Below are positions 33,008 to 59,032 of a DNA stretch of 64,000 nucleotides, piece by piece. How positions within the stretch are numbered: the first letter of the stretch is position 1; each line of letters starts with the position of its first letter. This DNA comes from Stegostoma tigrinum (Eukaryota), in contig NC_081396.1 in NCBI RefSeq assembly GCF_030684315.1, positions 5,456,001 through 5,520,000 of the forward strand, given 5' to 3'. The notes under the pieces are model-generated. The model saw only the letters and a list, made by a program, of their open reading frames with translations, made no database searches and had not been told where the DNA came from. The position numbers and the translations under genes are program-made.

Positions 33008-33464
33008 ATGCAGATATTCAGCGCCTGGGTTCTGGTCGGGATGTTCATTCTCGGTAAGGAAGAGTTTAATTATTATATGATCAGACTAAAGATTCATTAT
33101 TGATCCAGTAACAGATTTTAATACTTTCTTTTCTTCTTTTTGGGCTCGTTACAGATCTGAGTGATGGTAACTCCGTCACTCAGCCGCAGTCTTCAGACAG
33201 CAAGGCAGAGTATGAAACAGTGACTATAAGATGTACATATAGTACGACAGAACAGAACTATTATTTATATTGGTACCGACAACATCCAAATAAACAGCTC
33301 CAGTTTATTGTGTGGAGGCAGTCTTGGAATGCAGACCAAAGGAAAGGAGACGGTTTCAGAGACCGTTTCTCTGCAGAACTCAAAACCGGGTCAAAACTCA
33401 CCAGTTTAACCATTTCAAAGCTGCGGCTGACTGACACAGCTGTGTATTACTGTGCGTTCAGTCT
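33008..33464 (+). CDS. TRAV/TRDV: TCR alpha/delta V gene segment, apparently functional. Leader exon 33008-33053; V exon 33155-33464.
   Basis: Leader MQIFSAWVLVGMFIL-G with donor GTAAGG and a phase-1 acceptor. V reads DLSDGNSVTQPQSSDSKAEYETVTIRCTYSTTEQNYYLYWYRQHPNKQLQF...RDRFSAEL...LTISKLRLTDTAVYYCAFS, with C23, W41 and C104 intact and an RSS immediately after. Confidence 0.95.
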
Positions 33465-33503
33465 CACAGTGACAGAAAGCAGTCTCAACCCAGTACAAAA
33501 ACT
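33465..33503 (+). other. 23-RSS (recombination signal sequence)
   Basis: CACAGTG, 23-nt spacer, ACAAAAACT. Confidence 0.97.
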
Positions 33504-55508: not shown

Positions 55509-56212
55509 GCGAATGGTTTCAGATAGAGTCCAGTAGAAATCTGCACTGTGATGAGTTGCCAAGATTGCTCTTCTTGTGGAAATGTTGTGCATACTTAAAT
55601 AGTTATTCATGTCACATCTGAAGAAGTAGACAGCTCCAAATTACGAATCGAGGTTTCAGGATTAATGTGGGAACAGTACTCTTTTTAAGGAGACTGGTCA
55701 CAGTGTGGCATAAAGCTTTGGTTACAAAGCGGACAAATAGAATCCTTAAATCATTGGATGATGGAAATGAAGTTGAAATGCAAAGCGTCACCTGTTCATA
55801 GTTTTGTACCGGGAAGGGCAACATTGAGCAGTAACCTGTGAACTGTCATCTGTGTCGAGAATTTCCACCTTGCAAATACTTGTACTCGCCACTAGAGTGC
55901 AGTGTGAATCTGCGGCAAATGTTGACAGTGACAGCCAGAGAACGAATGACCTTCCAGACAGTTAAAAACAGTTGTCAGTGTGAAACACTTATTATGGAAA
56001 AACATAATGGGCCATATCTTCTTCTGTAACTTCAACAAGAAGTTAGAAGTGAGCAGAGCTTTGTTCTATATGTTCATTCTTATAAATTGAATACTTCCAT
56101 CAAGTTTCTCAACTGATATCGGCCACCAATTGTTTTCGCTGACTTTTCTTGCACTCTGATAATGTTCGAATTTGCAGAGTTCTGTTGCTGTTCTCCACTC
56201 TGATCTCCATAG

Positions 56213-56497
56213 ACATGACTGCAGAAATCGATGTGATGCAACTTTCTCCGAGGATGGTTATTAGTGAATTGGGAATGGTGTCCATGAATTGCTCCATTAC
56301 TGCTGCTACATTAACCACTGTGTATTGGTACAGACAGCTCCCAAATCAGCCAGCTGAGCATCTAGTGATGGCCAGAAGAGAAGGCAACCAGCCTACGAGG
56401 GTAAGCACTTCAATCAGTGGAGAATACAAAACCAGTACACTGACTGTGAGAGAGACCGGGATTGATGACACGGCCACCTACGTTTGTGCCAGTGAGA
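56213..56497 (+). CDS. TRAV/TRDV: TCR alpha/delta V exon of the short-CDR2 type. Open frame; leader unresolved.
   Basis: After ccatAG it reads DMTAEIDVMQLSPRMVISELGMVSMNCSITAATLTTVYWYRQLPNQPAEHLV...TSTLTVRETGIDDTATYVCASE, with C23, W41 and C104 present. No convincing separate leader exon was found upstream. Confidence 0.88.
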
Positions 56498-56536
56498 CAC
56501 AGTGTCACCAACAGAGGGAGTGTCCACACAAAAACC
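56498..56536 (+). other. 23-RSS, perfect consensus
   Basis: CACAGTG, 23-nt spacer, ACAAAAACC. Confidence 0.97.
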
Positions 56537-57094: not shown

Positions 57095-57520
57095 GATAAT
57101 AAAATGTGAGGCTGGATGAACACAGGAGGCCCAGCAGCATCTCAGGAGCACAAAAGCTGACGTTTCGGCCCTAGACTCTTCATCAGAGAGGGGGATGGGG
57201 TGAGGGTTCTGGAATAAATAGGGAGAGAGGGGGAGGCGGACCGAAGATGGAGAGAAAAGAAGATAGGTGGAGAGGAGAGTATAGGTGGGGAGGTAGGGAG
57301 GGGATAGGTCAGTCCAGGGAAGACGGACAGGTCAAGGAGGTGGGATGAGGTTAGTAGGTAGGAGATGGAGCCTTCACCCCATCCCCCTCTCTGATGAAGG
57401 GTCTAGGCCCGAAACGTCAGCTTTTGTGCTCCTGAGATGCTGCTGGGCCTGCTGTGTTCATCCAGCCTCACATTTTATCATCCTGGATTCTCCAGCATCT
57501 GCAGTTCCCATTATCACTGA
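57095..57520. mobile_element. Young Penelope-derived terminal repeat in inverted arrangement
   Basis: About 115-bp arms at 57095-57210 and 57368-57482 are near-perfect reverse complements. Confidence 0.8.
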
Positions 57521-58480
57521 TACATCTTCCTCTTGTCGACTCTTTGAGTCATCCTCAAGACTTGCCTTGCCACTTCTTTTTCTGTCATTTGTAAACTTGG
57601 CCATACCATGTTCGCGTTGGTCAGAATATGAATGTCTTGTTCATGTGTGTCTGCTCTCTCACCAGTCACTTTGATGGAAACTTTTAAACAATGTCTTTTA
57701 TTTTCTTTCAAAACAATCTGTTTTCCTTTTATTGGCGCTGCTGGCATTTATCTGTGATATTATGGCGGTGAGCAATCTTCTTGACACGCTGCAGGGCACC
57801 AGTTAATGAGATAGGAGTGACCTTTACAATGTCGCAAAAGCAACAATCAGTTCTACATTTTCATTTATTGAGAACTTGCTAGAGTATTTATTTATGTAGA
57901 AATAGTAGGAACTGCCGATGCTGGAGAATCTGAGATAACAAGCTGTAGAGGTGGATGAACGCAGCAGGCCAAACAGCATCAGAGGAGCAGAAAAGCTGAT
58001 GTTTCAGGTCTCGACCCTTATTCTGAAAATTTACCGAAATGTTCATGTCTCTGAATGAAACCATTTTCAGCTTCGACCAGCTCTACTCACGTTCACCGTG
58101 ATCTCTTTGCAAGCATGTCGCCAAGAGTTCTGTATTTATTCTTCACAGCTGTAGGTTTTCCAAATGGTAAGTTCGCACCTTGTGGAACTCGATACTTCAG
58201 CTGTTTGCAGGGATTGCATTTCAACGAGCAGCTCACCAAATGTAGAGGAAAGGATGCATTCTCCCCAATTTGAAATAATCGTCTGGACCCAGACTTGGCC
58301 CGACACCTAGCACTATGTGGGTGAAGTTCGCAAACTTCCACGTGTGAAAAACAGTGGTTTAGTTAAGCTGGGAATCCAAACAGGAAGGAGGACATTGAGA
58401 TGATTTCACGGAGAGGCAAGTTTTTAAACCAAGGGCTATTTGCAGATTTCCCTTCAAATCGCGGGAGATGAAATGGGAAA

Positions 58481-58515
58481 TGACCTCATTAGAAGGCGTG
58501 GCCTGTATATTAAAA
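58481..58515 (+). promoter_or_regulatory. Putative V-gene promoter (CRE-like, GC box, TATA)
   Basis: TGACCTCA at 58481, GGCGTGG at about 58495 and TATATTAAAA at 58506. The first downstream ATG is 58623. Confidence 0.5.
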
Positions 58516-58622
58516 ACTCTTTATTGAAGCCATCGAAGTCTTCCCTTACCAGCCGTTGAGTTGCATAAAATTTAGTTTAGTTTAATTTCATTGCCATATT
58601 TAGCAGGCTATTGTTCTCGGTG

Positions 58623-58993
58623 ATGGGCCAATTGTGGACGATAAGAATATGGGTTTTCTGCAATTTACTGTTCCTGCTGACTCTTCCTGGACAGTTTCGA
58701 GGAGATTCCATTTCACAGACAACAGCTAATATCAAAGTGAATGAGGGAGATGATGTCCAATTGTTCTGTAATTACACCACAACAGACAGTAATCCTTATT
58801 TGTTCTGGTACCGTCAGAGCCCCAGAGGATCCGTGGAGTATCTGCTACAGAGAAGCAAATATGCTGGGGGCACCCAGAAATTTCCAGGAGCCCGGCAGTC
58901 CTCGGAGTTGGATCATGTGAATCGTACTATCCGACTGATTGTACGTAGGACAGAACTGGTGGACTCCGCAGTGTATTACTGCGCTCTGAGACC
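58623..58993 (+). CDS. TRAV/TRDV: TCR alpha/delta V gene with the leader apparently in the same exon as the V domain
   Basis: One ORF: MGQLWTIRIWVFCNLLFLLTLPGQFRG-DSISQTTANIKVNEGDDVQLFCNYTTTDSNPYLFWYRQSPRGSVEYLL...RTELVDSAVYYCALRP. Canonical C, W and C residues; RSS follows. Confidence 0.93.
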
Positions 58994-59032
58994 CACTGCG
59001 ACTCTGCACTGGGCAGAACCTCTACAAAAACT
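58994..59032 (+). other. 23-RSS
   Basis: CACTGCG, 23-nt spacer, ACAAAAACT. Confidence 0.93.

Follow-up and report, generated by a model that had tools for sequence, protein, structure and literature searches.

A split leader is described as common to all antigen-receptor genes in the available part of PMC12227049, and in that of PMC10972964 a single-exon leader is described as unique to chicken V-alpha 1. The chicken TRAV1 genes are unrearranged and, apart from three named members, have their leader in a single exon (PMC10972964, same part), while marsupial TRMVj is germline-joined to D and J (PMC2275272, accessible portion). Catfish V genes with defective splice sites were classed as pseudogenes (PMC8656973) and a shark V with a GT-AT leader intron serves as an example in PMC2193156, both according to the accessible portions. 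TG acceptors function only beside an AG at most 28 nt away; of the candidate TGs about 0.01% serve as acceptors, and in human AG>TG mutants the neighbouring AGs were activated but the TG itself was not, as stated in the accessible text of PMC2374985.

We have analysed a window of 64,000 nucleotides of the zebra shark (Stegostoma tigrinum) genome (C55:5456001-5520000). In this stretch a first-pass annotation had described a V gene at 58 kb with an apparently intronless leader, an intact promoter and an intact RSS, citing the marsupial TCR-mu V as the known exception to the split leader. The latter is indeed germline-joined, but the list of exceptions was incomplete, with chicken TRAV1 missing from it. 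The 58 kb gene resembles TRMVj only in the apparent lack of a leader intron: its V is unrearranged and not germline-joined, the RSS is retained, and both the leader exon and the intron are still present. In contrast to chicken TRAV1, it keeps a split leader. With the ordinary split-leader TRAV family of XP_059497704.1 it shares the 52-nt leader exon, the long intron, the 14-nt L-PART2, the V clade and the 23-RSS; its own clade differs from that family by a TG instead of the cAG acceptor, a new out-of-frame cAG, a repeat in place of the distal promoter and the heptamer CACTGCN.

IMGT includes V genes whose splice sites are defective in its ORF/pseudogene class. The 58 kb gene is like them in that its V is open and an RSS is present while the signal of the leader intron is broken; however, its lesion is common to four copies in tandem and recurs in a second species, and its in-frame intronic ATG is a possible bypass. 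Its TG also resembles the TG-AG tandem 3' splice sites (pyrimidine at -3, purine at +1, AG 5 nt away), although the tandems known from the accessible text of PMC2374985 are alternative sites beside a working AG, whereas here the AG product is frameshifted. On balance, the gene is probably a crippled split-leader TCR-alpha V with a mutated acceptor, carried along as a passenger of block duplications.

Locus, gene identity and feature map

The V protein gave 74 matches in this genome, 73 of them on C55. The V of XP_059497704.1, a RefSeq-predicted Stegostoma tigrinum TCR alpha, is identical to that of paralogue L004, therefore the C55 locus is evidently the zebra shark TCR alpha/delta region. In the locus survey 70 loci were examined (69 of the 74 matches and one other region), of which 56 were parsed; the other 14 failed the V parser and are excluded from the counts given below.

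The V at 58690-58993 falls into one clade with XP_059497704.1 (support 99/97, the bootstrap being not fully settled). It has a V-set domain with Cys23, Trp41 and Cys104, and its PDB matches are rich in TCR alpha chains. A 3' 23-RSS starting with CAC and an L-PART1 exon with a phase-1 GT donor are also present. Judged from these sequence features the gene at 58115-59032 is a member of the TRAV family, and what it lacks of a functional one is an in-frame AG acceptor at the L-PART2 boundary. Protein searches returned nothing closer than 67% to this V, no MGQLW-type leader on any V and no cDNA-type sequence of the clade; the best match of a nurse shark leader primer to the clade leaders still had 6 mismatches. 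Protein P0045, which matches the 27-aa stretch in front of the V at 48%, was set aside as a tandem-repeat protein without a V domain.

Table 1. Features of the 58 kb V gene and of its upstream neighbour, in window coordinates
Feature	Position	Strand	Evidence or remark
Neighbouring V: ATG 56162, contiguous leader, V 56224-56497, consensus 23-RSS 56498-56536	56162-56536	+	
High-copy repeat, SINE-like, left end unmapped	57900-58031	.	1e5-1e6 depth in the DNA runs
Remaining proximal promoter / 5'UTR of the leader exon	58032-58114	+	73-82% local identity to AG paralogues
L-PART1, the true leader exon, with 17 codons + 1 nt (phase 1)	58115-58166	+	homologous in paralogues
Leader intron of 523 nt with the donor GTAAGT at 58167, ending in cTG instead of cAG	58167-58689	+	alignment to AG paralogues
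CRE-like TGACCTCA (58481) and TATA-like TATATTAAAA (58506), intronic	58481-58515	+	putative promoter motifs
Last 67 nt of the intron, from the ATG in frame with V	58623-58689	+	homologous to L006, L007, L009 intron 3' ends
Acceptor region: mutated TG 58688-58689, cAG 58692-58694, gAG 58699-58701	58688-58701	+	
L-PART2 (14 nt) and open TCR-alpha-type V, both Cys and Trp	58690-58993	+	translation
23-RSS, CACTGCG-23-ACAAAAACT; heptamer with 2 mismatches, nonamer with 1 mismatch	58994-59032	+	

The first-pass annotation had found no upstream leader exon; one is present nevertheless, 523 nt upstream (Table 1). A homologous exon was found 424-892 nt upstream in 8 of the 9 closest paralogues scanned, and none was found for L010. 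In L004 the homologous exon starts the predicted XP_059497704.1, where it is joined over 604 nt to a normal cAG. As for the RSS, the 23-RSS has been kept as claimed, with two mismatches in the heptamer; a full-consensus heptamer is present in 16 of the 56 V genes of the locus.

Two further observations were made in the window. At 33008-33503 there is an ordinary split-leader V, with the leader exon from 33008, the donor at 33054, an intron of about 100 nt and the RSS CACAGTG-23-ACAAAAACT at 33465. The same repeat fragment occurs twice in opposite orientations (about 57110-57180 and 57400-57480), each giving a weak RSS-like match with a 22-nt spacer.

Splicing of the mutated leader intron

It was confirmed that the TG at 58688-58689 is genuine: contigs of all four DNA runs span the junction without differences, so that an assembly error was rejected. 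These runs represent at most two samples of one study, possibly the source of the assembly itself. The junction lies at the usual phase-1 position and reads cTG|GACAG, as had been noted. The 14-nt leader remainder is as long as in the 33 kb V, although this is the usual spacing in the locus. Among the 56 parsed V genes the acceptor is YAG in 52, AAG in one and TG in three, the latter being clade members only. Copies L002 and L003 (86% and 79% aa identity) share cTG|GACAG, the upstream exon and the donor with the window copy L001. L033, the remaining copy, is dead: its donor reads GG and its junction cTC, and it has frameshifts and a truncated V; in no other copy is the donor mutated. This sharing suggests that the AG>TG change preceded the expansion of the four-copy tandem clade.

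In all four copies a cAG was gained 5 nt into the exon (GACTT>GACAG). This cAG (58694) is in phase 0 relative to the phase-1 donor. As the first AG it would be the most likely target of splicing, and its use shifts the frame, with a stop after 28 codons. A phase-0 donor within the leader exon, which could make the cAG productive, was considered and rejected, as the GTAGGT of L001 is unconserved in L002 and L003. In organism C, runs X9 and X13 showed intron depth equal to exon depth and no leader-to-V joint, with no bearing on expression; position 58688 was mostly A there, and the T remainder (about 25,000 of 178,000 and 500 of 153,000) differed between the two runs and was given no weight.

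According to an alternative explanation, which we regard as unlikely, the gene works with its upstream leader, either by partial splicing at the TG (as a TG-AG tandem) or at the in-frame gAG. Both of these sites give an open frame from L-PART1, and the leader exon, the donor and the V are intact in three of the four copies. The context of the TG is also acceptor-like: without the mutated column it scores 11.5-13.3, compared to a median of 12.6 for true acceptors. Furthermore, the AG which a TG acceptor needs within 28 nt lies 5 nt downstream, and the clade has gained exactly one. Against this stand the rarity of TG usage and the avoidance of the TG in the AG>TG mutants (PMC2374985, accessible text), as well as the loss of the distal promoter. 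The gAG (58701), 12 nt downstream of the TG, is only the second AG (the third in L003), it is preceded by G, and it scores -6.9 to -11.6 on the locus acceptor matrix, which is in-sample and biased against shifted sites. Branch-like words were recognized at 58664 and 58677. Cryptic 3' sites are mostly exonic with a peak 8 nt downstream, and an AG exclusion zone extends about 7-19 nt past the branch point (PMC1636351, in the part available). A branch point at 58664 would favour the cAG, while one at 58677 would place the cAG inside the exclusion zone, and therefore the gAG would be favoured.

Intron end, promoter and duplication history

The ATG at 58623 is, as the first-pass annotation had stated, the first one after the TATA-like motif, and 27 stop-free codons lead from it into the V. 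Nevertheless, a ten-way alignment, which had been proposed as a check, matched the 67 nt upstream of the junction to the intron 3' end of AG-bearing paralogues and not to their leader exon. The intronic ATG also occurs in L006, L007, L008 and L009, with a stop one codon after it in L006 and L009; the clade is 4 nt shorter than L006/L007 within the intron end, which sets the frame. The apparent signal peptide is the old intron end, where an ancestral intronic ATG was probably framed by the 4-nt deletion, and its translation is hydrophobic because pyrimidine-rich codons encode hydrophobic residues. The earlier proposal of acceptor loss with recruitment of a new leader stands as far as the cAG>cTG change and the in-frame position of the old intron end are concerned, but the ATG of the new leader is not conserved. 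It is ATA in L003, and AAG in a TG-bearing contig of a second species (organism B; depth 6.9, one run, among the matches listed), which has T at 58688 and is ungapped across the junction.

The CRE-like and TATA-like motifs, which had been taken for an intact promoter, lie 142 and 117 nt upstream of the ATG at 58623, thus within the intron. Similar ones, present before the clade arose, are found in the introns of the AG-bearing L005, L008 and L004. The leader exon itself has lost its distal promoter to a repeat: the block from -260 to -95 is conserved in six AG paralogues and absent from L001-L003, where the high-copy repeat stands at the equivalent place. The conserved promoter block of L004-L009, which lies between 260 and 90 nt ahead of the leader ATG, contains words which we take to be CRE/E-box-like, CCAAT-like and GGAA. 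A similar block matches L038 (C55, about 1.957 Mb).

It could also be supposed that, following the damage of promoter and acceptor, transcription starts from the old intron and its exonised end functions as a new unsplit signal peptide. This is improbable in our opinion, and it is slightly more doubtful still that the clade is mid-way to a single-exon leader by this route of intron-internal transcription and exonised intron end, an architecture known already from chicken TRAV1 and present in the neighbouring shark family. In support, L001 and L002 have the in-frame ATG followed by a hydrophobic core (2.5 and 3.1, signal-peptide likeness being judged by Kyte-Doolittle window), the 67 nt are free of indels in the four copies, whereas any two of them differ by 3-4 indels elsewhere in the intron, and CRE-/TATA-like motifs stand upstream while the leader exon's own promoter is truncated. 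However, the ATG is gone in one of the three open copies and in the organism B contig, though the V or the junction is still ungapped. The stretch diverges at the intron rate (10-16% among L001-L003 versus 8-19% for intron halves) without any excess of synonymous changes (of the 7 that separate L001 from L002, none is synonymous), and no coding constraint was detected on it. Besides, the motifs are older than the clade, and the strong donor at 58167 has been kept. Of the 52 V genes with YAG acceptor, 4 likewise have an in-frame ATG 14-40 codons upstream, one of which, that of the AG-bearing L005, opens a hydrophobic and equally signal-like stretch, and the translated intron end contains a hydrophobic window in 17 of the 52. 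A signal-like stretch at a V intron end is uncommon yet not rare.

The precise loss of the intron via cDNA of a germline transcript, which had been suggested by the junction at the usual phase-1 position and the 14-nt remainder, deserves practically no credence and is refuted by the persisting leader exon and 523-nt intron and by the 67 nt, which align to the paralogues' intron.

Returning to the reading of a crippled passenger gene, the clade copies are located at C55 5.515, 5.578, 5.618 and 5.654 Mb, and leaderless V segments alternate with them (5.539, 5.606, 5.644 and 5.681 Mb). The starts of these segments match the second domain of two-V shark proteins, e.g. P0016, thus they are likely, judged by this match, NAR-TCR supporting V segments (the name is taken from the available parts of PMC5931798 and PMC12227049). 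The neighbouring V of the 56.2 kb family was duplicated along with each clade copy. The copies were probably multiplied as passengers of blocks of 40-65 kb alternating with the supporting V, and such block duplication would explain the copy number without selection on the 58 kb gene. Use of the 58 kb gene as a NAR-TCR supporting V was also considered and rejected: its cAG is in phase 0, the supporting V acceptors here are in phase 1. In the V segments L029, L030, L044, L045, L048, L049 and L062 the acceptor is at -8, and a leader exon was not found for them; these segments match the second domain of the two-V proteins and are likely NAR-TCR supporting V, four of which alternate with the TG clade.

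Evidence of selection on the clade is mixed. In the V, 13 of 41 changes are synonymous compared to a neutral share of 0.286 (p=0.38), whereas the AG control pair L006/L007 has 13 of 26 (p=0.017). The V dN/dS is 0.59-0.80 in the clade versus 0.28 for L006/L007 at similar intron divergence, and 0.99 in the control pair L005/L008, which has just 4 changes. High dN/dS is possible in functional TCR V genes, therefore this neutrality test is weak. Speaking against a crippled gene, the V is open and the leader exon intact in three of the four copies at about 11-16% intron divergence, and the TG-bearing copy of organism B is ungapped across the junction. In a neutral-decay simulation, conditioned on the window copy, an open V in two of the other three copies had P=0.06-0.21, and P=0.02-0.09 when the leader exon was added. 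The V divergence is below that of the intron in two of three clade pairs, which could be attributed to gene conversion. Between the window copy and L002 there are 2 differences in the 105 nt of 58704-58808 (FR1-CDR1) versus 13% in the remaining V, and an intron patch with 8% divergence was seen between L001 and L003; these patches suggest gene conversion.

The neighbouring V family with a predicted unsplit leader

The unsplit-leader architecture which had been claimed for the 58 kb gene is predicted from the sequence for the V family at 56.2 kb, and this family is a better lead than the 58 kb gene. The V at 56224 belongs to a family separate from that of the 58 kb gene (clade support 100/98, the bootstrap being not fully settled). 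In L080, L081, L082 and L084 an ATG is located exactly 63 nt (21 codons) ahead of the V, and the leader which it opens has a hydrophobic core and is not interrupted by an intron; L080, L081 and L084 are 50-56% identical to L082 across leader and V. In the assembly sequence a single nucleotide is missing from the window copy directly behind its ATG at 56162, thus this copy is frameshifted. L081 and L082 have a good 23-RSS, while L080 has lost the first C of the heptamer. The family resembles chicken TRAV1 in its architecture: the ATG, the 21-aa leader, the V and the 23-RSS follow one another with no intervening intron.

The conserved ATG is accompanied by coding constraint on the contiguous leader: pS exceeds pN in 6 of 6 pairs, which are not independent of each other, and the chance of keeping the ATG and the open frame in three lineages is P=0.001-0.02, with indels uncounted. 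The distant members are alike only at about -350 to -180 and in the leader from approximately the ATG onward, and no shared upstream L-PART1 candidate was found within about 1.4 kb in four loci. As a caveat, the phase-1 position is YAG in all five copies; as an acceptor it scores -6.7 to 1.2, compared to a minimum of 1.2 for true sites.

The same leader was detected in four predicted Chiloscyllium punctatum proteins, chiPu_0019058-60 and chiPu_0025496 (64-69% over 109 aa). The family profile aligns over leader and V to human TRAV12-3; human TRAV12-3 and TRAV41-like were its best PDB and Atlas matches. In the sister family the leader is split by an intron at roughly the corresponding place. Of 12 comparisons bearing on an origin of the unsplit leader by intron loss or by exonisation, 11 score it higher on the sister's leader exon than on the sister's intron end and one is a tie, but these scores are low (15-25) and could be explained by composition.

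Repeatedly, a member of the unsplit-leader family precedes one of the long-intron family by about 2-4 kb in the same orientation. Such pairs occur at C55 1.727/1.730, 5.367/5.364 and 5.806/5.802 Mb as well as at the four clade copies, and this pairing suggests an old tandem pair.

In the literature, titles and abstract openings mentioned no unsplit-leader TRAV in sharks; this coverage is weak, as subscription work on shark TCR lies mostly outside it.

For the annotation of V genes the lesson is that a long leader intron with an AG>TG acceptor mimics an intronless leader; in turn, the unsplit-leader family would be mis-annotated by V-gene finders that insist on an AG acceptor and on a leader exon upstream of it. 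If either TG splicing or the intron-derived leader were true, the 58 kb clade would be a natural test of the birth of a signal peptide from an intron, and in case of TG splicing it would also test a TG acceptor bearing the only productive splice. If the architecture of the 56.2 kb family is true, an unrearranged shark TRAV with an unsplit leader would be the second case, either convergent or very old.
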